Of a DNA stretch of 64,000 nucleotides, positions 32,201 to 61,838 are shown in pieces. The notes beneath the pieces are model-generated. The model had not been told where the DNA came from and did no database searches. It saw nothing but the letters and a program-made list of their open reading frames with translations. A program made the position numbers and the translations under genes. The DNA is from Psammoneis japonica. Lineage: Eukaryota. Location of the stretch: NCBI GenBank assembly GCA_008632985.1, contig QPGO01000016.1, forward strand, positions 406,840-470,839, in the 5' to 3' direction. The number at the start of each line of letters is the position of its first letter. The first letter of the stretch is position 1.

Positions 32201-33880
32201 CCCAGACACCACCAGTGTCCTCAGCTGGCAATTGTTGCATTGGCTGTCACAGCTCTGGGGCCCTTGCAGCCCTTGTTGCACTCTCTGCCTGGAGTTTGAA
32301 ACTTGAGTCTGCTGCTGTTGGGGACAAGGTAACATGGCACCACAACACCACAAGGACAACCTCTTTCAAAGCTCAACCACAGTTCTAAAAGTCCAGGTTG
32401 GAGCCCACCAGATGCTGGCAACACCCTCAGCTTGCAGTTGCAAGGTTGGCAGTTGGCACCACCATGGGATGGCAGCACTCTGGAGTTGGGAAAGTCAAGT
32501 CTGCTGCTGTTGGGGGCAACATGTGGCATGGGGTTGCAACACAACAAGATCAACATTTTAATGCCCAGCCACAGTTCTTAAAGTCACACTTGGGGCCCAC
32601 ACCAGACACCACCAGTGCCTTCAGCTTGCAGCTGTGGTCAGGTTGGTTGGTGCCACCATCTTGGGGTCCTTTCACTCTGGTGTTTGGAAGTTCAAGCACA
32701 AATGTGAAATTTTGTTTTTCAACAAGAAGCAGCCAATTGAGGCCACAAAAACTGAGACATCAACCTTCTTCAAAAACAGGCACAATGCATCTGATCAAAA
32801 AATGTTCAACACCCAGGCTGCTGAACAAATAAAAACTCACAAGCATCCTGCATTGGCTGGCAATGAAGACCAATGAAATGGTTCACTCAAGTTGACTCAA
32901 ACAATCCAAAACTCAGAAAACAAATGCAACAAAAAGCTTTTTTTAAACAACCACTTGCAAAATGACATTCAGGCAATGATCGCCAGGCCAACTGGCTCAC
33001 AGCTCCATGGCAAAAAGGTGCACTCCCACCACACAAAACAACACAAAATCACAGGATGCACCCAAGCAGCACACAAACAATGACAATGTTGCAGGAATGC
33101 ACCAGCAAAACCCAGGACCCTGCATGTGCCAACAAAGAAAAGCCATGGGAAAGGTGAGAGGTCAGAAGTGCAGCACAGCAGCAGGCAGCTCACAGCAAAC
33201 AACACACAAACTGACACTTTCCTTTTGCATTTTCTTCATTTCTTGAAACTCAGACAAGTTGAAAAAGCAGCCAAGGACAAAAAATAAATTGCTGCAGCAG
33301 TGCTGCACACAGGCAAGCAGAAACAGAGCAGTGCTGTGCCATGCTTGCCAAAGAAAATGTGCCAAACTGACAACTTCTCTGCTGTCTCCTGCCAGGGATT
33401 GCAGTCATGTCTCACAATGAAAGGCTCTGTCACAACTGGCTCTTTTTGAAACACAAGTGATGTTTCATCCAAAACAAATTTCTGCAGTGTGGCTGTTGCT
33501 GGAAAATCAGTCACTGCCAAGAGCTGGCATTGTTGACACAGAGGGAGGGGGGGGTGGTGGCAGCAAGCATGTGATGGGATTTGCAACTTGCTTGATGAGG
33601 GCAGGCTGGCGGCGCCATTGCCCAAAGTGTTCCCTGATTCTTTGGGACAGCCACCAAGGAACAAACAATCATCTGGGGTAGAAAGCTGTCAGCTGATGTG
33701 GGGAAGCATGAAGCAGCCACCACCCCACACCGGGAGAGCAAGGGGGGGGCTTGCCATGGAGGCGCACAGTGTGTGTGGTGCACAGCGGCACCGCCTGTGC
33801 TGGCTCTCCTCAACAAGGGGCAGAGAAGCCCAATGCCAAAAACAAGAATGAATGTCATTGGCGCAAGAGAACCCTCAGAA
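29290..33880. other. TpA/CpG-depleted island 3 (degenerate sequence, element type not identified)
   Basis: TA and CG are rare, and many Cys/His-rich spurious ORFs occur. Lies between the divergent HSF and Rieske genes. Confidence 0.85.
31240..32700. repeat. Degenerate tandem array, ~190-235-bp unit, ~7-8 copies
   Basis: Anchor ctctggagtttggaaa.tcaagtctgctg recurs at ~31241, 31456, 31654, 31844, 32078, 32287, 32476 and 32672, followed by ggggacaaggtgacatgg and aagatcaac.ttgcaatgc.caaccacagttct. Confidence 0.85.
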
Positions 33881-34149
33881 GAAATTACACACGAGAAAAA
33901 GAACATTTGTCGGTTCTCTTGAAAGAAACGAGGAGAAAGAAAGGACCCCTGCCTCGTCCCCCGACCTCCCCAAAGCAAGGTGCGCTAGAGAGAAGAAACG
34001 CGCGACATCGGACAGCACAATGGCATATGCTGAGCAAGTGCTGGGTGCGACGCCTGTGAAACGCCGCAAAGTCCAATTCCTCGTTGTAATCGACATTGTG
34101 TGTCGAAAAACAGTTTTCAGTTTTCATAGAAAGCACAATCTGCCTAACC

Positions 34150-39600: not shown

Positions 39601-40233
39601 ATGAAGCTCTCCGTCCTTACTCTCTTTGCGCTTTCCCTTGCTTTCTACTCTGCTTCTGCAGAGGCTCTCAAGAGTGAAAGCCCTAATGCTGTCACCAAAA
39701 CTGGCGGCCTTCGAGGCTTGTCCGAGCCCGCTGCAGAACCCGCGGAAGCGATAGTCTACGAAGAAGAAAGCGAGGAAAGCGAGGAAGAAAGGAAGCCCGC
39801 CAAGAAGCCTCATAAGAAGGACGAAGGCAAGATGAAAAAGAAGAAGAAGAAGGCCGCCAAGAAGGCCAAGAAGCCTGCCAAGAAGAAGCCTCGCAAGAAG
39901 AAGCCTGCCAAGAAGAAGCCCGCCAAGAAGCCTCGCAAGCATGCAAAGGCAGACGAGGGTGGAAGCTCCTCTAGCTCTTCCGCAAGTGCTCCTGGTGACT
40001 CTTCATCAAGCGCAGGCAAGGATCATGTCAAGAAGGCTCACAAGCCGGCACGATATGGAGGCGGTGGCAGTAGCTCGTCTGGAAGCGCTTCTACTTCCAC
40101 TTCATCAAGTGAAGGAACTGATCCTGCCAAGCATCCTTACAAACCGGCACATGCAGCTGTCGACGGTAGCTCCTCCTCTTCGTCATCCGGTACTTCCTTG
40201 AAAACCCCTGCAGGTGACTCTCACCCCTACTAA
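39601..40233 (+). CDS. Secreted Lys/Ser-rich silaffin/cingulin-like protein
   Basis: Signal peptide MKLSVLTLFALSLAFYSASA, LRGL (RXL), acidic block, KKPAKK repeats, poly-Ser/Gly blocks, HPY repeats. Confidence 0.7.
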   Translation: MKLSVLTLFALSLAFYSASAEALKSESPNAVTKTGGLRGLSEPAAEPAEAIVYEEESEESEEERKPAKKPHKKDEGKMKKKKKKAAKKAKKPAKKKPRKKKPAKKKPAKKPRKHAKADEGGSSSSSSASAPGDSSSSAGKDHVKKAHKPARYGGGGSSSSGSASTSTSSSEGTDPAKHPYKPAHAAVDGSSSSSSSGTSLKTPAGDSHPY

Positions 40234-40418
40234 GCACATGCTGCCGAAGTGAAATTAGAAAATATCATGTGGCTCAAAGAAAAGGCGGAGGGCCGTACGA
40301 GCATCAATGACCAATGAACTAAGTGTAACAAAGTCTCTAATGTTCTTTGTCTTTATCGGACGACTGTCAATTCCAGCACTCTAGCGCTTTGTCAACACCT
40401 ACATTTTGGATCAAGCCT

Positions 40419-41900
40419 CTAACCATACCAATAGTTCTCTTCTTCGTTAACGATGGAACTCATGTACTCCTCTTCCGCCGCTACATTTTCTTTGAGAGCC
40501 GACACAACAATCATAAAATCAATCATATCCACAAGTTCCACATTCGACATACTAGCAAAGTTAGCGATGAAAGCAGCAAACTCTTGCTTGTCCAGCTTGC
40601 CGTTGGCATCCTTGTCAAAAGAACTCATTACTTGCTTGGTCTCTTCCTCTGTTGTGTTCATGCGAGTCGTGTCGTGAAACTTCCTGTAGTCATGCCGGAG
40701 AGAAGAAACGAGATCGTCAAATGAGGCTCGTCGAGACATTATTTACACCACTAACCCAACAGTCACCTACCTCAGCCCAATATTCATTTCCTCGACACTG
40801 ATGCTTCCATCTTGGTCACTGTCAAACATTCCAAAAAGGCGGTCCATTTTGGCCATTTCCACCACTCCAAGATCAACAAATTCTTCATTGTCCGAAATGT
40901 CTAACAAAGCTCCGACGGTGGTACTATCCATAGAAAACTTCTTGATGACGTCCTCGTTAGTCACTTCGGAGGAGGCCTGAATAGCATTACGCGTCATGCT
41001 GTCGGCAACATCATCAAAAGATTGATTGGAAGTGGACGCGACGACATTGAGCATGAGTCTGGCGAAGTCCTTGTAAGACAGCTCTCTCTTTTTGGTTTCA
41101 TCAAACACAAGGAGAGCCGAAACCGCAGCATGACTAGCCTCATCAATTCCGTCCATCAACTTGTACATGCCTACGACGACCTCTTTAAAATCGACCGCAG
41201 CATCGTCATCTTGGTCAAAGACACAAAACAAAGCCTTCATGCGACGGTCCTTCATGGCATGACGCAAACTTGAGTCAACCGATTTCCGCTCCTTACTTTC
41301 TTCCTTCTTTTCTTCCTCTTCAGCCTCCGCAGCGACAGCGAGAGCTGCGTTTGCATTTCGTCAGGAGCGCCTCCGGTAGCGTCAGTATCGGCAAAGATTA
41401 CTTTTGTTGCCAACATTTCAGTGAGTTCTTGCAGCGAACAACCAATCTGAGGCAAGAGCGTGTCTTTGACCAAAGTTTCAAACTCCGTTTGATCGAGCAG
41501 TCCAGCGTCACCCACTTTCTCCACAGCTTTTGTTAGGGACTCAGCAAAAGCCCCGTCACCTCGAATATCACCGAGACCGGAGGCAAGGGCCGACGCGTTG
41601 ACCTTTCCGTCCTTCTCGAGTATATCAAAGAGAGCGGCGAGCTTCTTGTCGTCGGGCATTTCATCCAGACCCTGAAGCAGCTCAAGTTCACTCTGCAGAG
41701 CCATGATCTGAGACATGAGAGAAAAAAGAAACTTAGATACTGTACGACCAGAATACTATGGAGCTGTAGCAGTCTTTATGCCATACCTGAAAATCAATCT
41801 TGGACCTGGAGAGTTTGACAAACTCAGTTGCAGACGTTGGCTTATGTTGCTCATTGGCTTCCAAAGCAACGCTAGAAGCCCTGCGGAACGCTGCGTGTTA
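40419..41900 (-). CDS. Multi-EF-hand calcium-binding protein, multi-exon; start uncertain; apparent frameshift near 41340
   Basis: FDQDDDAAVDFKE, FDSDQDGSISVEE, FDKDANGKLDKQE. Confidence 0.75.
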
Positions 41901-42539
41901 CTTGACCATGGTGGATGAGGATGACGATATGCTTTAGCGTAACATAAGATCTTTGCACTACGTACTTTACCGGCATTCGACCGTCGTGAAAGGTCACGTC
42001 ACCCAGCAAATCCATAATGTTGTTTCTGCTTTCTGCTGGAAGTTAAGTTTGTGTGAAAGATGTGATCATCATCTCAATTGGGTCGCGTTTTCCCTTTGTA
42101 CGACTGATGTGGGAGGGAGGAAACCGTCAAAACGGCAGGGCCCGGTGAGCAAATTCATTCTTCCTCTCAAGCTGTTGCTGACATGCGGCAGCTAACAACG
42201 AATAGATGATTGCACACAATTGCAGAAAAGGTGCCATGCATCGCCCTCCAAACCCAACAAATCTCCACCGGTGCACCAAACTGGCTCTGGTGGCTCTCTG
42301 AAAACAACACAGCCGTCCAGCAAGTGTCAATCCTTCTGCCACAGGGCCAGCCAGTCACATCCCAGGAACCACAAATCATGCTCTTTGTGCCACTTAGCCA
42401 AGGTTTCAAGTGCATGTGCAAAACTCATGTGATTGCTCATCACACAAAGACATGGATCGGCGATGACTGAACTCACAGCTGGTGGTGGCACACAGTCTGT
42501 TGACAAGAAAGCACAGTGGGAGCGACAGCCGTTTCAAAG

Positions 42540-43620
42540 ATTGGGGCTCCAAGAATGTAGTGAGTGAGAGGTTGGATTCTCACTCCCTTGCTCATCACCA
42601 ATGCAAGCCTTCCAATGCAACAGCCATGCTGTTTTCACTCTGAAAAGGGGCGGAGTCACGCCATGCTCATCGCCAGTGGCACAAACAAAATCCAATCCAA
42701 AGTCATGAAGCTGAGCCTTGAGTGCAGGCATTTTGGACAGTTGCAAGCCTGCTTTCCTCCATCACAGTCTTTCAGCTCTGAAGCTAAAGGTGATCCCTCC
42801 TCCTCTGTGATTTGGATGGAGGCCATTTCTGCTTTGCATTGAAAAAAGCTTTGCAGCCACGCTTCTCATCCTGCACAATGAGAGCCTTTCCTCCAGCCTG
42901 AGTGCAACCCGCCTTGACATTGATGTTGAGCCACTCAAAAAGAAACTTTGCAGCAGTTGTCACCCTCACACAAGCAGGTGTCAATTTTGTCATCTGCCAG
43001 AATGCACACTTTCTTCATTGGCTTGGAGCCTGGGATGATCTCATGTGGGCACACAGAGCATCATCTAAAATGCATGTTGTGATGCGACTGACATCAAGCT
43101 TGTCTCCATCATTGCATCAACCATTGCTGCTGGATTCTCTTGATGCACAGTGTGGGTTTTCAATGGAAAGTGCTGCCACAGTGTCAAGCATGTGTGCCAT
43201 GCATGGTTTGCACTGCATCTGCTCATGCACCCAAGAAGCTGTGGTGCATCAGCGACACTTGTTTCTTTTGGCAGTGGCGGAGATTTGAGTGCCATCACAT
43301 GGTTCTACAACTGCAAAGATGGAGTTTGTTGGAAGACAGTGACTGAGTGGAACCTTCTGAGTCAGCATTTCCCATTAGAGTGATTTGGTCAAGCAACAGA
43401 AATTCCAACTTGGTTGCACAAGAAGACAATTCTGGACTGCACTCTCAGAATGATTGTCTGTGCAAATTTGTTTCCATGAGTCTCTGCAGTCTTGACCTGA
43501 GGAGGGCATTTTGTTCCAGGATTTGCACACTCTGGATGCAGACCCAACCTCCCAAGCATCCAGCCAGTGTCTGATGAGAGAAGTCTCGTGAAATCATCCA
43601 TTTCAAAGTTTGTTTGGTGG
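42540..43620 (-). pseudogene. F-box-like gene relic, paralog A (heavily mutated)
   Basis: 42250-43620 aligns with 48465-49860. Shared KAxxTQAGGKALIVQ and LSKMPAxKxQ peptides. Confidence 0.65.
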
Positions 43621-43699
43621 CACCCTGAATCCACAGCCAGCACACTGTGGCAACCATGCAATCAGATTTTGGCTCAGACAGATCAGTGCAGATTTTCAA

Positions 43700-46600
43700 A
43701 TGGCTCCACAGAAACAGGTGCAGATTTTAAAAAAGAACAGATTTTTGCTGATTCTGCTAAAACTGAAACACGTTGTTGTCAGAATTTGGCAAATTGCGCC
43801 TTCTTTTGAAGACCCCTCCATGCCTGGCTCTCACTTTGTCACAGTCCAGTGGTCCATTGGCACTGCAAGGGGGGGAGACAGAAGGTGTGTGCATTTGCAG
43901 CATGCTGTTGCAGACAATTCAGAATTGTGTTTTGAGAATGGGCACCAATTGTGTGCAGCGAGATTTTCTGTGAGGACCCAAAACACCTGTCTTGACATTT
44001 GAAAACAAAGACCGGCTAAATCTGTGGCCACACATTTGCAACCCCTGAGCATCAAGGAGGTTTGCAGCTGGGATCCACTGCAGAGTTGTGGTGAAGGGGG
44101 GACAAGTGCTGCAAGAGCTCAAGGTGCAGATGCCAAGCAAGTTCACCCCACCTCGACCTCAAGTCTGATGCTGAATCCCCCACACAGTTGCAAAGCAAGT
44201 TCACATTTCAGCGAAAAGTGTGGCTGGACCCTCTGCTGCTTTCTCTGGAGTGTTCTTTGATCTGTCCATTTGTCATTGCACTTGGCAATCCAGCATTGAC
44301 AGGTTGTTTACATTTTCAAGCTTCTGCACTGTTTTTTGCCCAGAGCTGGCTTGCTTTGTTTTGCCATCAGAGAGAACAAACTCTGTTGGTCTGACCCCTG
44401 ACAACACCCAACAGCACAGAACTTTGGATCTGAAGTCAGAGGCACAAATGCTCCTGCCAGCATGCATGACCCAGAAAGTTGAGCAAGCTTTCAAGGCTTG
44501 GTGCCCATGTCAAGAGATTGTCCTGGTGATTTGCCATCATCACCTGGATGACTCTTGCAGGTTCAGTGCAGAGTGCTGAGTCTCAACTCTCAACAGTGCT
44601 GCAGGTGCTGAGAGCTTGTTGAAGTCCTGTGACAGGCTCTTTGGTGTTCAAGCCATGTCAGAGGAATGCCAGTGACAGAGGTCAAATCAAAGAGGCCCCC
44701 AAGAACACCAACACCATTGCCCAGTGATGCAATGCTGCAAAATCATGCTCAAGAGCAAGAGCACAAAACAGCCAGCAAGGAACAACCCATGAGGTGGGCC
44801 ATGTGAGACCACATTGGTGCTTTCCTTGCCACTCTCCTGTTGGCTGCCTCATGCAGATGAGGACCCCAAGATTGACACAAAGAATTGCTCCTGTTGTGGC
44901 CAATGTGGGCTGGCTTGGATGACCCAGGCAATGCATTCCTGAAGCCCCACCCATCAGCAAAGAGTCACAGCCATTCCTGCCTGACCAGCCCATCCTGTGG
45001 CCCTGCCCAGTGCCTGTTCTTGCACAACCACAGGACACACACAGCTGAGAACTTTGTTGACTTTACAAAAATCCCACTCCTTGCAATGACGCAACCACAA
45101 CACCAGTTGCCAGCACATGGGAGAGTGCTGACATGAGACTCTGTCACAGGAGTGCTTGTCATCCAAAAGACCATTGGCTCCCTGAGCTCAACATGCAGGA
45201 CAATGACAGCTCTGCCAGCCCAGTTTGGTTGATGTCCAAGATGATGACTCTCTCAGCACAACAAAAGTGGAGCTCAGCTGGGAGAATGACATCACCTCAG
45301 TGCCTGCCACCAGTGACAAGAAGACACATGATGCCAATGATGACTCAACACCACCCACTGGAGAAGGAGAACTCCACATGAAAAATGCCATGATGAGCCC
45401 CACATGCAGTCACAATGATGGAGGTGACAATGGATCATTGCTTGCTTTGGTCACCAAGGATGACAGCTCTCCACAAGCTCACAATGGCTCTGTCATCTGG
45501 ATCAAGAATGTGGCACCCCATGCTGAGACTGCATTGATGAGGTCATGCTGCCAACCTGTCCCATGGACCTGCTGGACTTGCAACTGCCATCTGATGAAGA
45601 CACTCACATGCCCAGCACTTGATCTTGGTTTTGAACTGGAGTTCTGGATGAGTCAGCAGATGCACCCAGTCCAACCCCGTCTGTTGTCACAGCCCAAATG
45701 GACAAATCACCCCACCACCAGAACCTCCATTTTTTCTGTCAGAAGGCATTGGCTTGTGTGCTGCTTGGACACCATGCAGCACTGCCCTTTCCACACAGCC
45801 ACAAGCTGCTTGAATGTTGGTTGGGCATGTTGAACGCAAAAGCATCGGTGATGCCTTGACTCATGAGAGATCTTGACAGATGGCACAAGTGGAAGAGGTT
45901 GTCTGTTGGTCAGCTGCATGCCCACACAACATTTCCAAGCACATCAACCTCTGCATTTCACATGACCCCCCACATCATGTTGGAGCTCTTTGACCCCAAT
46001 GTGTGCATCAAATGTGCTCATGTTCTGCCCCCTCCACTGCAGCAATGAGTGCGTCCCTGTCAAAAAGTTGGGCTGGTCTGTCCTGTGTCCATCAATGATG
46101 AAACAAAGCTGCTGCAAATGCCATCACTCAAGCTTGCTGGACAACTGCAGGGACAGGGAGAGTGCTCTGGGTGTCCCAGTTGACAATCCACCTCTCCACC
46201 CTCATCCAGAACCCCATCATTGGAAGCTTGGGCTCAGTGGATCAACTGTGTGTGCAAGAGGAAGAGGGCTTTTTTGACTGTGGAGTTGCTCACTTTGAAT
46301 GACAAATGTAAAAATGCTTTTGAACAGGGTGTTTCCTTGGCTGCAGCAGAGCACATGGCAGCACACACACTGAGTGCATCAAAAACTGCCCCTGTTGGTC
46401 TCCAATGCATGAGCTCACATGTGAACCACCCTTGGTTTACCTCAGTGACAAATTTGTGTGAATTCATGTGACTGATTTTTTTTGTCAGCTGATTGTCTCT
46501 GTCAGTCTCCAACACATGAACTCAGGTGTAAACCACCCTTGGTTCACCTCAGTGACACACCTGTGTGAATTTGTGTGACTCATTTTTTTGGTCAGCTCCT

Positions 46601-48350
46601 TCATGGGGATGCAGTCAGAGAAACCATTTTTGCATGGCGACAACAGGAGACTGCTTGAGTGCAAAAAGAAAAACTGTGAACAGGAGCCAATTCTCTGAAC
46701 CAAACAATTGATCTGCCAGCTGCATTTTTTCCCCATCACCAGTTTGGGGAGGACTCCACCTTTTGTGGGGAGACACCACAATTGGGGCCAACTGCCCTCC
46801 ACTGCTGCCCAATGCTGGATTGCATCAATGCGCTGCACTCACATGTGGACCAGTCCATTCCCTTTGATGGCAGCCCAGAGCTTGCCCCTGCACTGCCATG
46901 CACACAAAATTTGACCATTGCACTGACCAACCAAGTCAACACACCAAATGCAACCCAAGCCACTTTCACTCTGCTGCTTCTGGTTGTGGCACTGCACTGG
47001 CCCAACTGGCGCCTCCCTTGGCATCATTGCATCTGTGCTCAGCACACAGCCATCACAAACTCACACACATTGACCAAAAGATCCATGGAATGAGCAGTGC
47101 TCTGTTGGATTCACCTGCAGAATGTGAGTGGTCAAGCCTTGCCCCATCTCAGAGCAGGAGCAAAACTCCTTCAGCTAAAATGCACTGATGTGACAGCATG
47201 GCTGAACTCAACTTGGGTGCCAATGACAAATGACAAAATGTGGAAAGTGCTGCAGGTCCTCAAGCACTGCTCTCTGTCACAGATGAAGAGATCAAGACCC
47301 AGGGAAGTGTCACATGAAAGTCAAAGTGTTGCGGCTCAATGGCGACATGACATGCTGGACCACTTGGACACCCTGCACAACAACAATCCTTGGCTCCCTG
47401 TCAACTGTGCATGTGTCCACATTGCATCTCAATGACCATGGTTGCTGGCAGTGGACCCAAGAAGAAGACCCACCCATGATTGATTCTGACCAATGCTCCC
47501 TGGTTGCCAAGGCAGTGAAAGCCACCAAGGCCAAGTCAATGGCACAGCAGTTTGGTCTTGGCTGGCATCAAAGTGCTTTCCTCCTTCAAACACACCCTCC
47601 ACATGTGGGATGAACTCCATGGCAACACACTTTGGCAAAATGTCATTGACACCAAATTGCAACAGACCAACAAATTTGGCACCTTCAAACCATGGGAATG
47701 TGGCCACCTCCCCACTCCTTGAGGAAGGCTTTAAATGTGTCCCCTGCCAAGTCATCTCTGCTGTCAAGTTTGACCTCTGCTGGAAAGCACACCTTGCAGC
47801 CATGGTCAACTTTGCTGATCCCCCAAGGGAAGGCACACATGTTGCACTTCACTCCAAAGGGCCAATGCTGTCAGCTTGGTTGTGGCTCCTCCTGGTGCTC
47901 CCAAGTGCAATGTGCCACAGCTGCCATGGACTGAAGACACATGCTTGGAGGCATCTGGGTTGGCACAGCAACCAGCAAATTGAAGCACAGATGACAGCAC
48001 TTCATGGATGGCTGCACACCAATGAAAGACAACTCCACCTCCTCCACTTCATCATGTTTTTCAACGGCAGCCTCAGCACCCAAATTTTTCTTCTGCACCA
48101 CCAATCAAATGTTCCACATGTTCATCAGCAGCCAGCCTTCTGTTGTGCTGGGAAAGTTCTTGTTGCTGAGGAGATTTTCCTGATTGTTTGCAAGAGCAGA
48201 GTCTGTGAAACCCAGTTGCTGGCAAATCCTGAAGCACACCAAAGGATGAAAAATCAGACTGCAGCCGGCAGCATGTTGGATGGCAGCAGCACCTGTGTCT
48301 GAGCAAACTCATTCTTCCTCCAGCTGTGACCCACGGCAATCCAACAATGC
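43700..48350 (+). mobile_element. Degenerate Ty1/copia (diatom CoDi-type) retrotransposon; confident core ~47300-47850
   Basis: KVKVLRLNGDMT.W (CoDi V.W..G..TW), NP.L..CA, QFG, and RT start GFKCVPCQVISAVKFDLCWKAHL.A..NF.DPP (canonical GYK.I.....F.VK.DL.RKARLVA.G..T.PP). No LTRs identified; outer limits approximate. Confidence 0.7.
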
Positions 48351-48844
48351 ACAGATGAGCAAAACCAAAGTCTTTCTTGAGCTGGAAAGTGACTCATGCA
48401 CCCAAGTGCAGAAAAGGGCAGTCCCTGCTCAAAGCATGAGTGCTGCGTGCATCACCGTCCACATGTTCCCAACAAATCTCCACCGTTTCACCAAACTGGC
48501 TCTTTGAAAGCAACACAGCCAACAAGGTGTGAACCCTTCTGCCACAGGGCAGCAGTCACATCCCACAATGACATCTTGCTCTTTGTGCCACTCATCCAAG
48601 GTGATTGCATCATTGGTTGATTTAGTGACAGGTGCACGTGCGAAACTGGCACACATGTGTGTTCACATGCGAGGTGCAAACAAGGGAAGGCACAGGCAAG
48701 AAATGAAAGAAAGGGATCAGTGACTAAACCAACAGCTGCTGGCATAGTCTGTCAACACAGATCAATGACGATGACGATCTTTTCAATGATTGGAAGCTCC
48801 GAGAATGTTCTGAATGCGAGGTTGGACACTACTTGCTTCCTCGC

Positions 48845-49900
48845 TCATCGCCAACGCAAGCCTTCCAGTGCAATGGCCATGTCATTTTCAGTCTGAAAAG
48901 GGACTGGATTATCATTGTCAATGGTGGAGCAACAAAACTGCAATTCAAAGTCACGAATCTGAACCTTGAATGCAGGCATTTTGGACAAAACTTTGCGAAT
49001 TTGCTTTCCTCGTTTGCGGCCTTTCAGCTCGGAATGCCAAAGAAATCCCTCATCCTCTGTGATTTTCACAGACATGTCTGCTTCACATTGAAAGACATTT
49101 GAAGAATTGTGCTCAGCCTGCACAATGAGAGCCTTTCCTCCAGCCTGAGTGCCATCCGCCTTGACTTCGTCGTTGAACCAATTGACACGAATTCCGCAGC
49201 CGTCACGGTCGTCGCACAAATCACATGAGTTCGTTTCGTCGTCTAGAATGCAAACTGACTTCATGTTGTCCCGCCTGAAGAGAGTGACTCGGAGGCTGGG
49301 TTCATCTGTGCACATGGCATCAACTACAATGCATTCAATGATGCCATCGTCATCGACCATGTCATCATCACCCAACCAAGATCCTGTTGACGCATTGCAC
49401 GGATTTTCAACTGCAAATTCCACCCCGGTGTCAGGCGCGTGCAACACATGTGGTTCATGCTGAATCTAATCATGCGTCCATGAAGCCATGATGTGTCGGT
49501 GATGCTTGTTGGAATAAATGGACCTGTTGGTTCGGTGGAGTTCCACAACTGCAAAGATGGAGCCAATCGGAAGGTTGTGACTGAGTGGAATTCTTGGAAC
49601 CTCCTCGGTCGGCACTTCCGCTGAGAGTGATTTAGCCAAGTGACGGAAATCCCAACTCGATTGTACAGAGAGACAACTCTGGACCGCATTCTCGGAATGA
49701 GTGTTTGCGCAGATTTGTTTCCATGAGTCTCCGCCTTCTTGACATGAGGAGAGCATTGCATTCCAGGATTTACACACTCTGGAAGCAGGTCCGACATCCC
49801 GAGCGTCAAGCCAGCGCATGACGAGCCGCCACGTAAAACCATCCATCACAAAGTTTGTTCTGTCAGCAGACGGGCTCACGCGATGATGCAGCGGTGATGA
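48845..49900 (-). pseudogene. F-box-like gene, paralog B (partly mutated, frame broken near 49460)
   Basis: FTWRLVMRWLDARDVGPASRVCKSWNAM...DSWKQIC is an F-box-like motif. Continues in ORF 48845-49447. Confidence 0.65.
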
Positions 49901-50054
49901 ATGCAATGATGCTTCGTTCGTTTGATGATTCTCGTTGTCCCTTTTTCTGAAAAGGCAGAAAGCCAAGGCAGAAATCTTTGAGAAGGACTCCATGAGCATT
50001 CGACACTGATTATGTGTTGCTGCCAAGAACTGCTGCAATGGTTTGATTTGCCTC

Positions 50055-50675
50055 ATTTGCCTTCTTGTTGCTGTTTTTTAAATGGAAGATTGAGGGAGCC
50101 TGTGCAGAGCGGAAGGGAACAGCAGAGGGAGGCACGGAGGCAGCTGTAGAGACGGCAGAGTAGAAGGGTCGAAGGACGCAAGACGAAGGGCGTTTTGAGG
50201 AAGGCATGGGTGAGGAGGGGGCAGGGAGAGAGGAAGTGAATCGGAGGATGTGCATGGAAAGGTGAAGAACGACGTTGCAGCCAAGAGTTTGGGTGGCCCA
50301 CTGGGATGGGGTGGCTGTGCGGCAGGTGCTCCCAAAGTGATCGGCGGACAGGCGACGCCATGCGAAGTCAGCAGAGGGAAGGATTGCAGACGGAGACGAT
50401 AAAGCGTAGAGGAAGGCGGAGTAGGAGGCATCGGAGTGACGAAAGTCAGAGGAAGAGGACCAGGGTGGCTTGGGCTGAGAGCAGACGGAGGAGGATGTAG
50501 AACCAAAGAGCAAGCGGTGGGCAAAGTAGCCGAGACCACCAAGGTGATCTACAGTGAAGGGGAGCAGGAAGATGCCATTGTTGTTAAGCGAAGAAACAAC
50601 AAGGGATCCATCGGTAGAGGAAGTAGAGGGGCCAAGAAACTTCAATCTCGCGCTCGAGTGGTGTGCCTTTCCTCT
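50055..50675 (-). mobile_element. Third CRE-like LINE 3' fragment, largely unmutated
   Basis: KAHHSSARLKFLG...IFLLPFTVDHLGGLGYFAHRLLFG...RRLSADHFGSTC, homologous to copies 1 and 2 (RQLSPDHFGSSC at ~2620-2660). A-rich 3' end at ~50075. Confidence 0.7.
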
Positions 50676-50931
50676 CCCGACGATCCTTCTCTGAATATGT
50701 ACCGGTGCCGTATGATTTTTCAACACTCGCTGAATGATGGCGCGGATCAGCTGATTTGAGAAAGGGCACATGTGCTTTACCAATCGATGTTGAAGTTGCA
50801 GTTAGAGTGTGCGCTCAAAGGGTGATTTTGGTCATAATTATATATACGTCGCCAAAACTTAAATTCGAGGGCATTCTAAATGGAGAAGACACAGCATCAT
50901 CTCAAATCTCAAAACACCGAGCTGGAGCACC

Positions 50932-52139
50932 ATGATGTCGTCCTCTACCGCTGCTCCTTCCTCAGCTTCTTCAGACCATAGGACATCGTCAACGATAAGC
51001 AATGGTACAACCCCAGAAAGCCTTCCTCTTGCGTCGTTACAAATGGACGTGGGGCTAGTTGACTCGCATCTTTTAAAGTTGCTGTTGCCTCGGTTTATTG
51101 GCATGTTTAAGCATGTTCGACCATCCATGGGCGGCTTGGAAGAAGTCTTTCTGCATCTGATAACTCTGTGGTTTACATGTGCACAGACACCAGCAACAAA
51201 AGCACTGGGAATGCGTGTACAAGACCGCGGCTCATCACAACAAAAATCATTGGCAGCTGCAGCTAGCATTTCGCATTCCACAGTCTGGAGACTTATGCTG
51301 CTGTCTGTCGTATTGCCGACCCTGTATCAGAAATTAGTTTCGTGGTACGAAAGTTCTTTATCCAACACAACGACTCAAACAAGAATAGATCAATTGGCCA
51401 TGGAGAGAAAAAGAAAACTGATTCAAGGTGTAATGACTGTAATTCAACGGACGGTTCCCATTTTGAGGTTGACAACTCTTCTAAGTTGCTGGTGCGGTCG
51501 TTCCAATTCACCAAGCTTGGCCATGTGCCTTGTTGGATTGAATTACCGTCAAGAAGATCAGAGTCCCCCGCTCAATGTCACGTATGCGCATCGACGGTGG
51601 CTCTATGAGGAGTTTTTGCGCACGTTGCAAGATGTATCTCCGTATTCACGAACTTGCTCCTTTCGCTCGTTGAACTCGTGGTGAGTGTTTGCCAGCAGCG
51701 CTCCGACCGGAATGCTTTCTACCTCGTCGTACGCTTGCGTCTCTTATTGTTATATGTATTTACTCTCAATTTCACTATCTCACTAGGGTGACGGATTACG
51801 TACCATCGTTTCTGAAAAGACGCAGCAATACCACTGACTTTCCTCGGTAGGAACATTTTGTTTTTTGCGTAGGGCCCTATAGATGCGACCTCTAGAGTCC
51901 AGTCCTCTTACCTCTTTGCCCTTTTGTGCTTTACGTTCCGCAGCTGCGTTCTATGCGAGACGACTCCAATATCCATACCATACACTACAAACTGTGGGCA
52001 CTTGTATTGCTACACGTGCTTATGGAATGCCGTCTTGGATAATCCGCGTTTCAAATGCCGAGAATGTGGACAAGTGGTGCGGAGCAGCAAGCCTTTTGTC
52101 CCCATACGCACACCTACTCGTAAAGGAAATGGACCATGA
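50932..52139 (+). CDS. PEX2: Peroxin RING-finger protein, PEX2-like; exons 50932-51680, 51787-51846 and 51944-52139
   Basis: Pex2/Pex12-type N-terminus (TPATKALG, YAHRRWLYEEF) and RING CVLC...CGHLYCYTC...CREC. GT-AG junctions keep the frame. Confidence 0.75.
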
Positions 52140-52335: not shown

Positions 52336-53675
52336 CTACGGCTTTGGAGTGCTCTTGGCCTTTGGACAGTTTTTGCCGTTTGCGTTCCCAAGATACTCAC
52401 TAGCGCCTCGACCATTTCTATCTCGGGACCCGCCTTTTGGAATAATTGTCATGGACAACAAACTATCACCCTTGATAGCGCTGCCGTTTCCTTGTGCTGC
52501 TTTGCTGCCGGTATCTCCTCTTCGTTCAGCACTTTGCCAAACAAGTAGCCCGATTCGTCGCAACCATATCTCTTGGACTTCCGACTCAAGGGATTGCCAC
52601 AATCAAACATGGAAACGAAATTGACAAAGCCTTTAGGGGGGAGGAAATCACCCTCTTTAACTCCAGGTGCACCACTATCAAAGCCTGCGACAATATCATT
52701 AAATAACCTTCTTTGCCATAAACAGCAGGAAAGACACTGTGTGTTGAGTTGTCGTTTCCCGTTCCATTCCAGTCTCTGATAGGATCCTTCGTATCAGCAC
52801 CCCTAAAGGCGGATAGAAACATCCATGCAGGGTCTTCCCGGCTTTCCCACGGACTCAATACGAACGACAGAGATGTCGAGCCACGCAGCTCAGCTGTTCC
52901 CGCTTCCTTATAGAATATCGACTGCGCCAAGTCTCTACCTCGACCCTCAGTCTTTTTTCCAAGTTGACCGCCTCCGCCAAACTTCTCACAAAAGACGTTC
53001 TTCGTTCCAACAAGCTCGTCTTTTGGAGCACAAACCATGCAGTCAAGATATGTCGAACAATCTTTTCCATTTCCAGTTTTGTAGCATTCACACGCACGAG
53101 TCCATCCACCAGAATCGTTTATTGCTAAAGGCAAATAGTCGTCAGTTCGATGGAGAACCAAGAGAAGCAAATCACCAGCCTGTGTGCCTTCGGGAATTTT
53201 GATTTTTGCCTTGTACACGTTTGAACCTGTCACGTATGAACTTGTGGTTCCAACGTGCCTGATCTTCTCAACGCTTTGTACGGGAGTGCTTTGAGGCTTT
53301 CCCTTGCTATAACCTGGCATTTTTCCAGGACGAATGCAGAAGTCTCTCCAAGCATTGCCAGAGCCGAGGCATCCAGGAACATGTTTTTGAGTACGTTGAA
53401 AGCACCTGAAGATAGAGTAAAGAGAATCGTGATTCATGTGAGCATATTTCGTTGTAGAGGAACAAGGGATTATTTCTTTTGCAATTATTGGAAGTGAAAA
53501 ATTACCTGAGGGGTGGCTGGCAATCCTTGTCCGTATCACAGTCGCCCTCGCAAACGCCGAGTTTTTTTCTCGAAGGCTTTCTCCATCGAAGCCGCGGCTG
53601 CGCATGAGCGAGTGGTGGAATAAGAACCGCCCAGCTCAGAACGTAGGAGAACGCAATGACCCCGACAGTAAACAT
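52336..53675 (-). CDS. Frustulin-ACR-module protein, family copy 1; intron 53406-53505; two -1 frameshifts (~52684, ~52525)
   Basis: Signal peptide, LGVCEGDCDTDKDC...CFQR..VPGC.G.G...DFC, and a C-terminal domain colinear with the 56044 and 60510 genes. Confidence 0.75.
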
Positions 53676-54199
53676 TATTGTGGTTTCCGATTCGGTCGCG
53701 GTGAAGAGCGCACTGTGATAATCAAATATGATGCTTGACAGGTATACTGTAAAGCTGAAAATCAGAAGCACCTTTTCCGCTACAATCGGCAACTTCGATG
53801 GTCGAATGCGCCTCGCTTCCCTCGTTCTTGTTGGGCTAATATACGACCAACCGTTCAACCACGAATCAATTCAATTCAGAAAAATGCCCGTAGGACCCTT
53901 CCCTTACGATGTTTTAGATGAAATCAGAAGGCACACCACTGAATCAACAACTCTCATAAGTGTTTCATCACCACATCGGGCGATGACCCCCAAAAAATGT
54001 GACTGGGCAGGGCGCGCTCATTTTCGAGTTTTTGTCGAATGCCGCAAATTGTCGCAAGGGCAATGCCTACTAAGTGAAACTTTCTAATTATTCAACCGCA
54101 TTTTCTCTATTTTCTTGATGCTAACTTTATCATAAATACAAATTAATCGTACAAAATGACATTTGACATTTTTTTTACGTCGGGGCTCACAAGGTTGCT

Positions 54200-55640
54200 T
54201 CGTGCTTCACCGCTGCAAAAAATGCCGACCAATGCAACGGTGGCACGCCGACGCAATGACTTTTACCAGTGAGCATGTCAGATGCATCCAACTGGCATTA
54301 GCATGCTGGCAGGATCCATGCATTGCATGGCACCGAAACAACTCACAACACTCAAGCAAGCAACAAAGCCGCTGGTGCGCGTGTCGCCTCTTGTTTGACG
54401 CTGGGCCAGTGCCTCTGATTGGCAGGTTACACAAAAACACCACAAAGGCAAACAGTGGACAAAAACTGAAAAAAAGCATCCCAAATGCAAGGCCAGAATG
54501 GAGAGTCGCCTGAAAACCTGCAAGCAGCCGGGGGCAGTCAAAGAGCAAAAAATGACGCAGCTGTGGCACACAGTGATTGCCAGTTCTCTGCACAAAAACA
54601 AGCAGCTGCACAATGGAGAGCAAACCACAATCTGACCCCCAAGCTGCCCAAGGTTGGCAGCAGCCCATGGCGCTCTCTGGCTGGAGCACTGGGTGCCATT
54701 TTTGCCAGCTCCTTGTGGAAGAAAAAAATGAGTGTGTTGCACACATCACAAGGGGGCTTTGTTGCGACAACTTCTGGCAACAGTCAGCCATGGAAGGAGC
54801 CTGAAAAGAAGAGTTTGCTGGCAACAAGCAAAAACATTTTGCAGCACTGGTTGTGCTGGATTTTGTGCAAGAAGAGATTGGGGCACAAAAGGGTTGGGAG
54901 CAGACAAGTGTGGAGCCTCGTCACCTGACACAATGAAGCACAAGTCTCAGCAACACAATGAAAAAAGAGAAGAGTCACACCTGGGCAATGTTCACTTGAC
55001 AAGAGAGTGTGAACACCATGCACAAGAAAGTTGTGTGACTGGGTTTGCGCCAGCTCTGGACAAAAGGAAAACACCACCCAGCACACAGCATTCTTTGACA
55101 TTGTTTTCACATGAAATCTCTGCTGGCCCAACAGCAGTGTCCTGAAAAATGCAACACATCATCATGCATGGATGGCAAGATCAACTTTGTTGAAAAAAGT
55201 TGGCTGGCCACTGCGACCAGAGCACCCCACACAGAAACTTGTTTGGAGAAAACGCCCCCTTGAGAGTGTGCTCAAGAGACTGTCATTGCCCCCCTCTCCT
55301 CAAAGTGTGCATGCACTGAAAGCAAAGAAAGTGGCAAAAAGAACCGCTGTTGCCAGTCAGTGCACGCACATTGTTGGCTCCCTTTTCTTTTGATCAAACT
55401 GTTCTGGCCATTTGCGTTGATCACAGTTCTTGTCATTTTCAGCTGTTTTCCCTTCTTTCAGATGAGACCAAATGTTCTTTTGAAGATGAAGCAGTCACAG
55501 CAACACTCAAATGCTCCCATCTCTCCCCCCCTCTAGCCCAGCTGTCCACTCCAGAACTGTCATGGAAAAACCGCATGATGTGACCTGCAGACTTCCCAAG
55601 TCTGGCAGCAGCACGTGCAGCACACAAAAATTGAAAGCTG
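54200..55640. other. TpA/CpG-depleted island 5 (degenerate insertion, weak piggyBac-like hints)
   Basis: Same dinucleotide signature. Located between family copies 1 and 2. Confidence 0.8.
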
Positions 55641-56043
55641 AAAGCACGAACAGTTCTCTACTGCTCTAGCTAGAGAGCAGCTAAAGTACTGCACATGTCA
55701 CTCAGCAGTCGATAGATGCAAGCACAAACAACTATGACAGCTTTTAGAAACTTTGCCAAGTCAGGCAGTGGAGCAAGTGGTGAGAGGAAACATTAACATG
55801 TCTTCGCGGCTGAGAATGAAGCTAGCTAGCAACGGAAAATTGTCCGAATATTTTTTTGTAGGTAGAGTTTTGATGACTAGAAGTATTTTGAAGCATGTAC
55901 CGACGTAAAGGTGTAGACACTGAAAGTTTCGTCACCGTCGATATGAATTCTGTTCAAACACACATGGACACTGGGACAGATAGACCAGGGTTCACCGTCT
56001 AACCACGATCTGGTCAATTGGAGAGATTCGGAAGTCAAGATGC

Positions 56044-57315
56044 CTACTTTGGTCGCTTTCTTTCTTCCGGGCAATCTTTGCCATTGGAATTTCCAAGCCA
56101 TTCACTTGCGCCTCGGCCTTTTCCATCGTGGGCTCCTCCCTTTGGCATAATCGTCATGGACAACAAACTATCGCTTTTTACGAATCGTCCATTGCCTCGT
56201 GTTGTCTTCTGGCCGGTGTAGCCATTCTTTTTCAGGATTTTTCCAAACAGGTAACCGGACTCATCGCATTTATAACTTCGTGACTTCCGACTCTTGGGGT
56301 TGTCACAATCAAACATTGATTCGTAATTGTCAAACCCCCGAGGTGGAAGGAAGTCGCCTTCTTTTACACCAGGCGCACCGCTGTCAAAGCCCTGGGAAAC
56401 AACCATCAAATCCCCTTCTTTACCGTAGACAGATGGAAAGACACTGTACGTTGAGTTGTCATTTCCAGTTCCATTCCAGTCTCTGATAGGATCCTTCGTA
56501 TCGGCGCCTCTCAACGTAGTCAGAAACATCCACGCTGGGTGATCCCGTTCCTCCCATGGACTCATGACAATGGTTAGGGTCTTTGATCCACTCAACTCCT
56601 CTCTTCCAGCTTCTTTGTAGAAAACAGACTGGGCCAAATCTTTTCCGGAACCGTCGGTTTTTCTCCCAAGTTGACCACCCTTATAGAACTTTTCACAAAA
56701 CAGGTTCTTCGTTCCGACGACATTCTTCTTTGGGGCACAATACTTGCAGTCAAAGTACGTTGAACAATCCCTACCATTGCCGCTCTTGTAGCATTCACCC
56801 GCCCTTGTCCATCCATCATAGTCATTTATTCCCAAAGGGCAAAAGTCGTCGGTGCGATGAAGAACCAAGAGAAGCAAGTCGCCGGGCTCTGTACCTTCAG
56901 GAACTTTGATTTTTGCTTTGTATATATCCGAGCCCTTGACGTAAACTCGTGTAGTTCCAATGTGTTTGATGCGTTCAACCTCGTTGATGCTTTGCTTCCC
57001 TCCAATCTCTCTTTTGTGGCGCTTGAGCCCTCCACCCCGTTCCTTTTCCTTGCTTTTGCTCTGGTCATTGTCATCGGCTTCTATGCAATAGTCTCTGCCG
57101 CTTCGTCCACTTCCACGACAACCAGGCACGGGAGTTTCGTCGTCGCGCTTGAAGCACGAGAGGCCCTTCTGGCAATCATTGTCGCTGTTACAGTCGCCTT
57201 CGCAAAGGCCCAGCTTAGTTCCGGACGAACGCCTTTTCCATCTGAGCTTTGGTGGCGCCGCACCGGTTTTAGTAAGGATGACTAAACAAAGAAGCCAGGG
57301 GATTACGCGCTGCAT
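56044..57315 (-). CDS. Frustulin-ACR-module protein, family copy 2
   Basis: Signal peptide, LGLCEGDCNSDNDCQKGLSCFKR...VPGCRGSG...DYC, then a ~300-aa domain with VPEGTEPGDLLLLVLHRTDD. Confidence 0.85.
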   Translation of the reverse strand: MQRVIPWLLCLVILTKTGAAPPKLRWKRRSSGTKLGLCEGDCNSDNDCQKGLSCFKRDDETPVPGCRGSGRSGRDYCIEADDNDQSKSKEKERGGGLKRHKREIGGKQSINEVERIKHIGTTRVYVKGSDIYKAKIKVPEGTEPGDLLLLVLHRTDDFCPLGINDYDGWTRAGECYKSGNGRDCSTYFDCKYCAPKKNVVGTKNLFCEKFYKGGQLGRKTDGSGKDLAQSVFYKEAGREELSGSKTLTIVMSPWEERDHPAWMFLTTLRGADTKDPIRDWNGTGNDNSTYSVFPSVYGKEGDLMVVSQGFDSGAPGVKEGDFLPPRGFDNYESMFDCDNPKSRKSRSYKCDESGYLFGKILKKNGYTGQKTTRGNGRFVKSDSLLSMTIMPKGGAHDGKGRGASEWLGNSNGKDCPEERKRPK

Positions 57316-60509: not shown

Positions 60510-61838
60510 CTACGTCTTGGGTCTGTTCATGGGTGCTGGGCAGTTCTCGCCTTTATTGCCCAGCCACTCAGAAGCGCCTCTGCCTTTGCTATTAGTCCCT
60601 CCCTTTGGTTTAATAGTCAAGGAGACTAAACTGTCACTCTTCTCTGCGGCGCCATCGCCTTGAGTAGTTCGTTCACCAGTTGGCCCATTCTCTCCAATCA
60701 CTCTTCCGAACAAGTAGCCAGACTCGTCACACGGCTTTCGCCCGTTGCAATCAAACATGGAGACATAGTTCTCAAAGTGCTTAGGCGGCAGAAAGCTTGT
60801 CTTGTCGACACCTGGTGCGCCACTATCAAATCCCTGTGAAAGTAAGAGTAAATCACCGCTCTCCCCGTAAACGGAAGGAAATATGCTATGGGTTGAGCCA
60901 TCATTGCCCGTTCCTGCCCAATCACGAATAGGATCGACCGTGTCAGCACCGCGAAAGGACGACATGAACATCCAACCTGGGTGCGAGCTAAACATTATTG
61001 GGCTCAGGTTGATCGTGATAACTCTTCCGATGTCCTGTGGCCTTGCTTCCTTGTAGAAGATCGATTGCGCTAAATCTCTACCGGAACCTTCGGTGTTTTT
61101 GCCAAATTGACGACCCTTGCCGAATTCTCTGCAGAACACATTCTTCGTATTCACGAGGTATCCGGTTCGCGCTGAATTGCACTTTTGACAATCCATAAAG
61201 GTTGCGCAGTCCTTACTGTTGCGCTCCTTGAAACACTCGCCTGCGCGGATCCATCCCGAGTTATGGTTTCCGTTTATGCCGAACGGCAAAAAGTCATCGG
61301 ATCGGTGAAGAACTAAAATCAGCAAGTCTCCTTCCTTGGTGCCTCTCGGCACCGGTATCCTTGCCTCGAACACTTCACTACCACTCACGTAGTTTTGAGT
61401 AGTGCCAATGTGAATGATTTCTTGAACGTCACTACTTGGTCTCTCACGATTTGCGCTTTGAGACGCCACATGGTTCCCACCGTGAGGTGGTTGTGGAGGG
61501 GTTTCTTCGTTTTTCGGAGGGGGCTTCTCAACCTCTTGGGATTTTTTCGCCTGGGGTGGGCCTTGCCAGGACTTATCAGCACCACGAGGATAGCAGAAGC
61601 GCTTGTAACCCCCCACCTTCCCCTCACATTGTTCTGGGAGTTCTCCATTGTCACCCTTAATTTCACAAGATAGGCCTTCTGCACAGTGTTCATTCCGCCG
61701 ACATCCTCCTTCGCACTTTCCAATGTTTGTTAACTCGTCCTTCTCTACTCGCCTAACATTTTGAGCGGATATAGTCGATGGCAGCAAAGTCGTCAGGGCA
61801 ATCACAAACGCGATGCGCTGAATCCTTGGGAGCTTCAT
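60510..61838 (-). CDS. Frustulin-ACR-module protein, family copy 3 (divergent ACR)
   Basis: Signal peptide, IGKCEGGCRRNEHCAEGLSC...C.G....RFC, Pro-rich linker, and the same C-terminal domain (VPRGTKEGDLLILVLHRSDD). Confidence 0.85.
   Translation of the reverse strand: MKLPRIQRIAFVIALTTLLPSTISAQNVRRVEKDELTNIGKCEGGCRRNEHCAEGLSCEIKGDNGELPEQCEGKVGGYKRFCYPRGADKSWQGPPQAKKSQEVEKPPPKNEETPPQPPHGGNHVASQSANRERPSSDVQEIIHIGTTQNYVSGSEVFEARIPVPRGTKEGDLLILVLHRSDDFLPFGINGNHNSGWIRAGECFKERNSKDCATFMDCQKCNSARTGYLVNTKNVFCREFGKGRQFGKNTEGSGRDLAQSIFYKEARPQDIGRVITINLSPIMFSSHPGWMFMSSFRGADTVDPIRDWAGTGNDGSTHSIFPSVYGESGDLLLLSQGFDSGAPGVDKTSFLPPKHFENYVSMFDCNGRKPCDESGYLFGRVIGENGPTGERTTQGDGAAEKSDSLVSLTIKPKGGTNSKGRGASEWLGNKGENCPAPMNRPKT

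Follow-up and report, generated by a model that had tools for sequence, protein, structure and literature searches.

Probable TpA-to-TpG/CpA hypermutation of inserted DNA in a chromosome of the diatom Psammoneis japonica

A mutator directed at TpA dinucleotides has been seen once, in one rhizarian alga, the chlorarachniophyte Bigelowiella natans. In mutation-accumulation lines of this alga, 231 of 302 new nuclear point mutations fell in two integrated viral regions; the hypermutated DNA there is integrated nucleocytoplasmic large DNA virus and virophage DNA. The changes were A-to-G or T-to-C in 210 of 211 cases in the larger insert and in 20 of 20 in the smaller, and all GC-biased changes lay at TpA (Mettrop et al., 2026 bioRxiv preprint, 10.64898/2026.01.13.699255). 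The B. natans genome also contains 124 TpA-poor, CpA+TpG-rich clusters that are enriched in transposase and reverse-transcriptase domains, and the authors propose an ADAT2-like adenine deaminase as the agent. Here we describe a 64,000-nucleotide (nt) stretch of Psammoneis japonica DNA (contig QPGO01000016.1, positions 406,840 to 470,839, assembly GCA_008632985.1), hereafter the window, in which five islands are almost devoid of TpA. We put at roughly 75% the probability that a mutator turning TpA into TpG or CpA acted on inserted, partly mobile DNA of this diatom chromosome, and that it did so after insertion and after local duplication. An earlier, sequence-only reading of the window had noticed the islands and knew of no published description of such a process. 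The B. natans work overturns that last point. The signature is already described, and the diatom is an additional lineage. Our full-text literature searches gave the preprint as the one relevant paper, and among the papers that they listed there is no account of the signature in diatoms.

The islands share with the B. natans inserts the same TpA target, the same two strand products, and the same long-term signature. Judged from the scars, the changes appear to be A:T-to-G:C transitions only, restricted to TpA and yielding both products, as in the B. natans type. In both algae, the hypermutation appears confined to inserted DNA, whose viral or transposon nature is shown here by the recombinase of island 2 alone. 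The two cases differ in four respects. The present host is a diatom, and thus a stramenopile. The islands are small (1.5-8 kb) and saturated, with a TA observed/expected (o/e) ratio of about 0.05, whereas the active viral insert of B. natans has a Rho(TpA) of 0.45. The scars here are joined with a nested CpG-poor core. Finally, the rate was measured in B. natans, at about 1000-fold over the genome, whereas here the process is known from scars alone. The main text of the preprint does not contain the words "CpG," "context," or "trinucleotide," and where it speaks of a "motif," four times in all, bases next to TpA are not meant; its supplements may bear on both CpG and context.

Three better-known systems are also related in part. 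Repeat-induced point mutation (RIP), as found in ascomycete fungi, is likewise a localized, transition-only hypermutation that ruins mobile DNA where it sits, prefers a certain dinucleotide, and can be seen afterwards as a scar in composition. However, RIP is set off by duplication and converts CpA to TpA, by which new TA and new stop codons arise, whereas in the islands TA is destroyed, frames are open, and CpA is doubled. The decay of CpG by deamination of 5-methylcytosine (5mC) on methylated transposons would cover the CG-to-TG/CA part of the scar in the cores of islands 1, 3, 4, and 5. It cannot remove TA, and regions that retain CG (island 2, and 48.4-50.0 kb in island 4) have lost their TA completely. 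Animal APOBEC3 and ADAR provide a deaminase-style defense that swamps an invader with transitions in a preferred neighbor context. However, the substrates of these enzymes are single-stranded cDNA or RNA, and their changes come in clusters and with a strand bias, whereas the changes here are symmetric and unclustered and affect a DNA-transposon gene.

Dinucleotide o/e ratios were computed on the island coordinates of the sequence-only reading, with the rest of the window as the comparison. As that reading had claimed, the islands nearly lack TA and their flanks are ordinary: TA o/e was 0.04, 0.07, 0.06, 0.06, and 0.04 in islands 1 to 5 and 0.62 in the rest of the window. CG o/e was 0.15, 0.75, 0.14, 0.22, and 0.31 in islands 1 to 5 and 0.96 elsewhere. 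CA rose to 1.48-1.82 from 1.12 in the rest of the window, and TG to 1.46-2.01 from 1.11. The focal interval, 42190-50050 in island 4, contains 32 TA and 103 CG, where about 340 and 418 are expected from the background frequency. Together the five islands span 20,995 nt and contain 77 TA, where the same basis predicts about 909. In 500-nt windows (step 500), 15 in a row, from 42001 to 49500, had a TA o/e of ≤0.19 and a mean TG/CA o/e of ≥1.62. The TA-free stretches claimed for the focal island are exact, with TA at 44309, 45064, and 46309 and none in between, and the claimed CG-free stretch holds as well, with zero CG from 44212 to 45090. The island positions were right and the bounds slightly too narrow. 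In our delineation, island 1 extends from 1170 to 5560, island 3 from 29260 to 34080, and island 5 from 54180 to 55660, all three poor in both TA and CG. Island 2, from 12260 to 15090, is TA-poor (o/e 0.07) with CG kept (o/e 0.75). For island 4, TA positions and windows place the TA-poor domain at about 42100 to 50400.

The gaps between successive TA dinucleotides have a mean of 22.8 nt and a maximum of 161 nt in the background (n = 1,771), while the longest gaps in the islands are 1,495, 1,245, and 1,106 nt. The probability of finding no TA in 1,243 nt at the background frequency is about 1e-24. These gap lengths and this probability exclude a chance origin of the TA-free stretches. Pyrimidine-purine steps make up a fraction of 0.238 of all steps inside the islands and of 0.236 elsewhere, as predicted for a transition-only flow of TA and CG into TG and CA. 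The other A-containing steps are near normal in the islands (o/e for AA 1.10-1.38, AG 0.91-1.11, AC 0.88-0.99), and TC shows no depletion (o/e 0.87-1.11). There are minor, unexplained shifts, for example in GA, with an o/e of 0.71-0.88 in islands 1, 3, and 5. A regression of island 4-mers on the background (R2 0.55) was uninformative. Open reading frames (ORFs) fill the islands in all six phases, 182 of them with at least 70 codons. These frames stay open because TA-to-TG/CA changes create no stop codon and remove TAA and TAG. In the translations of the island ORFs, Tyr accounts for 0.1% of residues (2.6% in the comparison), Cys for 6.4% (1.7%), and His for 5.2% (2.1%).

The direction of change can be read at the protein level in island 2. 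This island contains a 469-codon open frame, stop to stop (12666-14072, plus strand), with 204 homologues at an E value of ≤1e-3 (best E, 6e-56). The relatives are about 470-530 residues long and, like tyrosine recombinases, have Arg, His-x-x-Arg, Gly-Arg-Trp, and Tyr motifs in this order. Alignment A1 shows no variation at R221, R343, and W366 and hardly any at H340 and Y375, and the island 2 frame has all five. The sequence-only reading had called a tyrosine recombinase from the peptides GNPHHTC and LPHTSHS, and the homologue family and the motifs confirm this. The frame itself has no match to Pfam Phage_integrase (PF00589), and 3 of 12 homologues score 17-19 bits with that model, against a gathering cutoff of 27.1. 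The label "Crypton" is our own assignment from these motifs and was given by no tool. By its sequence, island 2 appears to be the remnant of a Crypton-like element.

The island 2 frame has a single Tyr in 469 residues, the catalytic Tyr375 (codon at 13788). Tyr averages 3.3% in the best 150 of the 204 relatives and makes up at least 2.1% in 43 full-length ones. Half or more of 20 aligned relatives have Tyr at 7 columns, and at these the frame reads His at two, Tyr and Cys at one each, and Trp, Phe, and Arg at one each. At the 14 columns with at least 25% Tyr, it reads His 4 times, Cys 3 times, Trp 4 times, and Phe, Arg, and Tyr once each. Other conserved residues are mostly retained (Pro at 13 of 14, Trp at 9 of 11, and Arg at 12 of 17). 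Among the metagenomic loci that encode recombinase relatives, 32 of 32 have ordinary TA (o/e 0.22-1.16 over the matched part), compared with 0.07 in island 2, and none is TA-poor. Therefore, the family is not natively TA-free, a possibility that the sequence-only reading had wanted checked.

The duplicates inside the islands give the direction at the DNA level, and the timing as well. If an ancestral TA is resolved separately in two copies, the copies come to differ at half of such sites, with TG in one and CA in the other. Otherwise, a TG/CA double difference requires two simultaneous transitions. Island 4 contains a direct repeat of about 1.4 kb, with a left copy at 42219-43614 that has lost both TA and CG and a right copy at 48406-49859 that has lost TA and largely kept CG. 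The copies are 67% identical in nucleotides and 85% identical when recoded as purines and pyrimidines. In 757 well-aligned dinucleotide columns, this pair has 18 TG/CA double differences, against 0 of 843 and 0 of 930 in two control duplicate pairs outside the islands, one of them equally diverged. From the 18 double differences, the number of ancestral TA can be put at about 36. This is 4.8% of columns and lies near the TA frequency in the background, 4.3%. Of the sites that read TG or CA in the left copy, 28 read CG and 5 read TA in the right copy; the left copy has TA at no aligned site. Apart from pyrimidine-purine steps, the pair differs by about 55 transitions and 66 transversions (124 to 95 in the control pair), so there is no transition excess over the control.

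Two further duplications agree. The copies of a 107-nt tandem duplication in island 4 (46384-46597) differ mostly by transitions; they are 84% identical in nucleotides and 96% identical in purine/pyrimidine code, and they show 3 double differences in 106 columns. In a tandem array of seven units of about 200 nt in island 3 (31241-32697), CA and TG are both present in 25 of 178 columns; seven other double-transition pairs occur in 0-8 columns each. Because the copies hold opposite TG/CA outcomes, the conversion was later than the local duplications, separate in each copy, and, for islands 3 and 4, in place. The direction claimed by the sequence-only reading, TA to TG/CA on both strands, is thus upheld by the Tyr columns, the relatives' TA, and the double differences between duplicates.

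Several properties of the process can be derived from the islands. The CA/TG counts of the five islands are 927/854, 455/451, 556/489, 237/270, and 176/142. Both strands were hit, because CA is close to TG in all islands and Tyr was replaced by Cys 3 times and by His 4 times; the changes are strand-symmetric. When the succession of TG and CA along the islands was put to a runs test, z ranged from -1.6 to +0.8, with no clustering, which argues against long one-strand tracts as left by cDNA or RNA editing. The left edge of island 4 is sharp and lies between the TA at 42099 and that at 42203. The right edge is soft, with 4 TA in 49860-50400, and the TA-poor zone reaches about 500 nt beyond the right repeat copy.

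The loss of TA does not depend on the loss of CG. In islands 1, 3, 4, and 5, a CG-poor core lies inside the TA-poor domain, set in by about 80-400 nt on most sides. The core of island 4 is at 42320-48440; CG is back from about 48446, and TA is absent for about 1.9 kb further. TA is thus lost with CG kept in the right part of island 4 and in island 2, which makes the TA loss independent of CpG decay. The sequence-only reading was right that a second process must stand beside CpG decay. One of its candidates, repair triggered by G:T mismatches from 5mC, is disfavored, because the TA loss is saturated where CG is intact.

Duplication was not the trigger either. A 1-kb direct repeat (5-1001 and 5944-6946, 91% identity) brackets island 1; its TA and CG are ordinary, and its left copy extends beyond the window start. 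This repeat may be a tandem gene duplicate or may have to do with the insert. The two copies share 27 TA and have no TG/CA double differences in 930 columns. The 74%-identical paralogues flanking island 5 also keep TA. A RIP-like duplication trigger is ruled out by the untouched 91%-identical repeat.

The surviving TA sites suggest a preference for neighboring bases. Sites with a preceding T or a following A number 59 in the islands and 705 in the background, and those in other contexts number 15 and 1,072. No ATAT, CTAT, or GTAT is left in the islands, and the reverse-complement contexts behave alike. This suggests a target preference of roughly TAT over TAC and TAG, and of these two over TAA, although the counts are small.

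The island sequences were checked in reads, as the sequence-only reading had proposed. In run X1 (coded), 95% of the sampled words of 41000-50999 are present. Logan contigs of this run, which are read-derived k-mer contigs, match 42876-45042, 45650-46307, and 46280-48807 with no other letters. One contig with 1 difference (40165-42899) crosses the left edge of island 4, and another with 1 difference (53531-56497) takes in the whole of island 5 with host DNA on both sides. The word depth of X1 (about 65x) is 63-69 in the islands and 59-99 in the flanks. Because the X1 contigs reproduce the islands and bridge into host DNA, the islands are neither a base-calling artifact nor a chimeric join.

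Where the assembly and X1 disagree within islands 4 and 5 (42291, 45314-45315, and 55613), the few differences are all at pyrimidine-purine steps. They comprise TG versus CG, CA versus CG, and one TG versus CA double difference, which comes from a short variant contig near indels at 45149-45388. These differences may represent allelic copies that resolved one site differently.

We then consider what the islands are. The sequence-only reading had called them transposable-element islands. This stands for island 2, with its recombinase, and is unproven for islands 1, 3, 4, and 5, in whose ORFs no transposon family was found. When 244 island ORFs were compared with Pfam, there was no transposon or viral family and only weak, sub-cutoff F-box-like matches. 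In a tblastn search of the window with 150 recombinase relatives, each of the 151 matches fell in 12500-14000, which places the other islands outside the recombinase family. A purine/pyrimidine-recoded comparison found no family common to different islands, and a search of the ESM Atlas with two ORFs of island 4 gave no usable match.

In island 4, the reading had interpreted the peptide GFKCVPCQ as part of a copia element. We found no support for this in 131 ORFs of the island, none of which has a transposon Pfam domain, and the Atlas gave nothing usable. A Ty1/copia element is not supported by domains: there is no reverse transcriptase, integrase, or gag domain in 64 ORFs of at least 70 amino acids and 67 ORFs of 35-69 amino acids. 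The Atlas search with 47490-48299 also gave no usable match, although heavy mutation could hide domains. The layout of island 4 might be that of a long terminal repeat (LTR) element, with 1.4-kb direct repeats 6.2 kb apart around a 4.8-kb core. The direct repeat reaches leftwards to a shared TGCAGAAAAGG. Directly after the left repeat copy, the sequence opens at 43615-43632 with TGGTGGCACCC, which to our eye resembles the tRNA primer-binding site of an LTR element. Against an LTR layout, the repeats carry F-box-like open frames and differ by 8.7% transversions (66 of 757 columns). The left copy has a weak F-box-like ORF (43378-43593, minus strand; E 0.001, below the Pfam cutoff). In the right copy, an open frame at 48848-49465 (minus strand) has 0 Tyr in 206 residues. 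Next to it, an F-box-like frame at 49469-50077 (minus strand; E 4.7e-5, 23.5 bits against a cutoff of 24.3) has 1 Tyr in 203 residues.

We propose the following mechanism. The islands would stem from DNA that was inserted into a diatom chromosome and was mobile at least in part. Once this DNA had settled and had been duplicated locally, a mutator acting at the DNA level would have turned nearly every TpA into TpG or CpA. It would act on either strand equally, site by site and not in long one-strand tracts, would halt within about 100 nt of the island edge, and would require neither duplication nor CpG methylation decay. In the island cores, the decay of CpG to TpG/CpA would run beside it as a second process that is slower or narrower. 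In coding terms, Tyr would become Cys or His, and Ile, Leu, Val, and other residues would be altered, with the frames left open. We infer that the agent would be an enzyme recruited to silenced or foreign chromatin. The TadA/ADAT2 family naturally reads U or T before its target. A zinc deaminase of this type, acting on DNA adenine preceded by T, is our tentative candidate, to which we give somewhat less than an even chance. The B. natans preprint argues for the same U/T preference (10.64898/2026.01.13.699255).

The alternative that survives best is chemistry at thymine. The T of TpA in silenced DNA would be modified, for example to 5-hydroxymethyluracil (5hmU) by a TET/JBP-type dioxygenase, would mispair with G, and would be replaced by C. 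TpA is palindromic, so a T-to-C route fits equally well and has full strand symmetry, and 5hmU does mispair with G. In dinoflagellates, which are algae of the same supergroup, 5hmU is a thymine-directed mark of silenced repeats. It is enriched on transposable elements, for which a role in silencing has been proposed, and older work quoted in the same sources had T replaced preferentially in TA and TC (PMC11572971, PMC11071213). However, a base-resolution map from Breviolum has no sequence preference, and the accessible parts of these sources describe 5hmU as an epigenetic mark and not as a mutator, with no link to TA loss reported (PMC11572971, PMC11071213). In the islands, TC is undepleted, and both 5hmU and a TET/JBP enzyme are putative in this diatom. 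We consider the thymine route unlikely.

A-to-I editing of element transcripts by an ADAR- or ADAT-like enzyme, followed by reverse transcription and re-insertion, would place the scars before integration. Such enzymes favor U before the edited A (10.64898/2026.01.13.699255), and the sharp island edges would fit. However, one edited strand gives TG and not CA on the sense strand, whereas CA is close to TG in every island and Tyr gave way to Cys 3 times and to His 4 times. The one identified element is of the DNA transposon type, which lacks reverse transcriptase, and the local duplicates diverged independently after duplication. These points make RNA editing a very improbable source of the scars.

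Alternatively, foreign or mobile DNA might always have avoided TA and CG, by selection or as the signature of a donor genome. Some viruses do avoid both dinucleotides, and for four of the five islands no relatives are known for comparison. However, the relatives of the island 2 gene have normal Tyr and TA, its conserved Tyr columns read His or Cys, and the TG/CA double differences of the local duplicates can have come only from an ancestor with TA or CG. Native composition is refuted for islands 2, 3, and 4, and we regard it as hardly tenable overall. An assembly or base-calling artifact on modified DNA is just as implausible: heavily modified DNA can mislead some base-callers, and X1 may be the assembly's own sample, but its k-mer contigs (about 65x) agree with 0-1 differences over pieces of 0.7-3 kb, and their depth equals that of the flanks.

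A number of points weigh against the proposed TpA-to-TpG/CpA mutator, or against parts of it. Since TpA is palindromic, A-to-G on one strand is T-to-C on the other, and the deaminase step is pure inference. Only scars are seen, and they are possibly old, so that the process could be extinct in this lineage. For islands 1, 2, and 5, the sequence data may fit change before insertion as well as change at the present site, and an ancestral sequence is lacking for four of the five islands. One island alone is identified as a mobile element, and the focal core has no recognizable gene. A codon-by-codon polarization of the recombinase had low power: the 173 conserved columns contain 72 mismatches, which comprise 5 single TA-type steps, 5 of the CG type, 33 multistep changes, 21 transversions, and 8 other transitions. 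This analysis is weak because the frame is only about 30-38% identical to its relatives. The context bias of the surviving TA presumes that the island ancestors had a background-like composition. Finally, X1 may come from the assembly's own sample, and its library type is not on record.

If the diatom scars have the same cause, a system seen in a single rhizarian would be widespread among marine algae. It is about an even bet, in our judgment, that a TpA-specific mutator of newly settled mobile or foreign DNA is common to distant algae (at least diatoms and chlorarachniophytes), needs neither cytosine methylation nor duplication, spares TTA/TAA about six-fold, and uses an enzyme (a DNA adenine deaminase or a thymine modifier) of no described genome-defense pathway. 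The window constrains such a system: no CpG methylation decay or duplication is needed, and the changes are strand-symmetric, made site by site, and leave frames open. Diatoms are tractable, since some can be transformed and edited, so CDA-fold deaminases and TET/JBP candidates are testable. Transposon and virus annotation will miss such elements, as 0 of 244 island ORFs match a Pfam family of that kind. Purine/pyrimidine recoding lifted the apparent identity of copies, in one pair from 67% to 85%.

The catalytic Tyr is the sole Tyr left in the island 2 recombinase, and the catalytic Arg, His-x-x-Arg, and Trp are intact as well. Its survival could be due to chance, as about 1 in 10 TA survives in island 2, or copies could still have been selected for activity during mutation.

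Some public relatives of the recombinase are themselves Tyr-poor. Four of the best 150 relatives (P0271, P0351, P0318, and P0355) lack Tyr at all of four conserved Tyr columns and read Cys or His in at least two of these, and P0338 has His at the catalytic Tyr column. These five hold 0-1.6% Tyr. The records come from Logan (P0271 and P0318) and JGI/IMG (P0338 and P0355). Compared with the intact P0248, the P0355 cluster has His, His, Cys, and Cys at 4 of 5 Tyr and several Val-to-Ala changes. Because these Tyr-poor proteins have Cys or His at conserved Tyr columns, the same scar appears to be present in other public records. A metagenome scan for a pair of mutated and intact proteins (alignment A2) gave no match, and a scan of viral contigs found no relative. 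Cluster look-ups did not yield names for the recombinase relatives.

Around the islands, the window contains host-type genes. For an ORF that encodes a ribosomal protein S15 of bacterial type (19447-20064, minus strand), 524 relatives were found at an E value of ≤1e-10. Among the best 120 of these, 9 of 9 names that give an organism are diatoms: three Bacillariaceae metagenome-assembled genomes (65-73% identity), two Cylindrotheca, Seminavis, Epithemia, and two MMETSP entries whose truncated names start with "Thal" and "Staur." By these names the host is a diatom, probably a raphid pennate. It is not B. natans, in which genes have 8 introns on average (PMC13746701). Host genes are long open frames with few interruptions, and complete sulfatase and NmrA-like domains each lie in a single frame. 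The sulfatase and a PaO-type oxygenase have best identities of 55% and 53% in the protein collection and indicate no clear lineage. Run X2 shows intron-like skips; it has no cover in the islands and is uninformative on expression there. A zinc-deaminase ORF in the host region (21745-22527, minus strand; Pfam dCMP_cyt_deam_1, E 6.9e-9) has the motifs H-G-E and P-C-C-M-C, and a PDB search with it gave no match at an E value of ≤0.001. Its HGE is, we presume, closer to FCY1-type cytosine deaminases than to ADAT2 (HAE). This ORF is one CDA-fold candidate, without any link to the islands.

Island 1 contains an inverted repeat (2261-2531 and 5209-5495) and an N gap at 2187-2254. Three paralogous genes stand in tandem on the minus strand (52364-53263, 56069-56970, and 60748-61331) and belong to no known Pfam family. 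Island 5 sits between the first two of them, and both of these host-type genes are unaffected. To the right of island 4, TA is partly depleted in 50001-50500 (o/e 0.35), and a 263-codon frame at 50013-50801 (minus strand) has no Pfam family. Over 49616-50817, the summed X1 word depth is 1,772-4,093, compared with about 65 elsewhere, which suggests that the purine-rich stretch adjoining the island on the right is present in many copies or is of low complexity.

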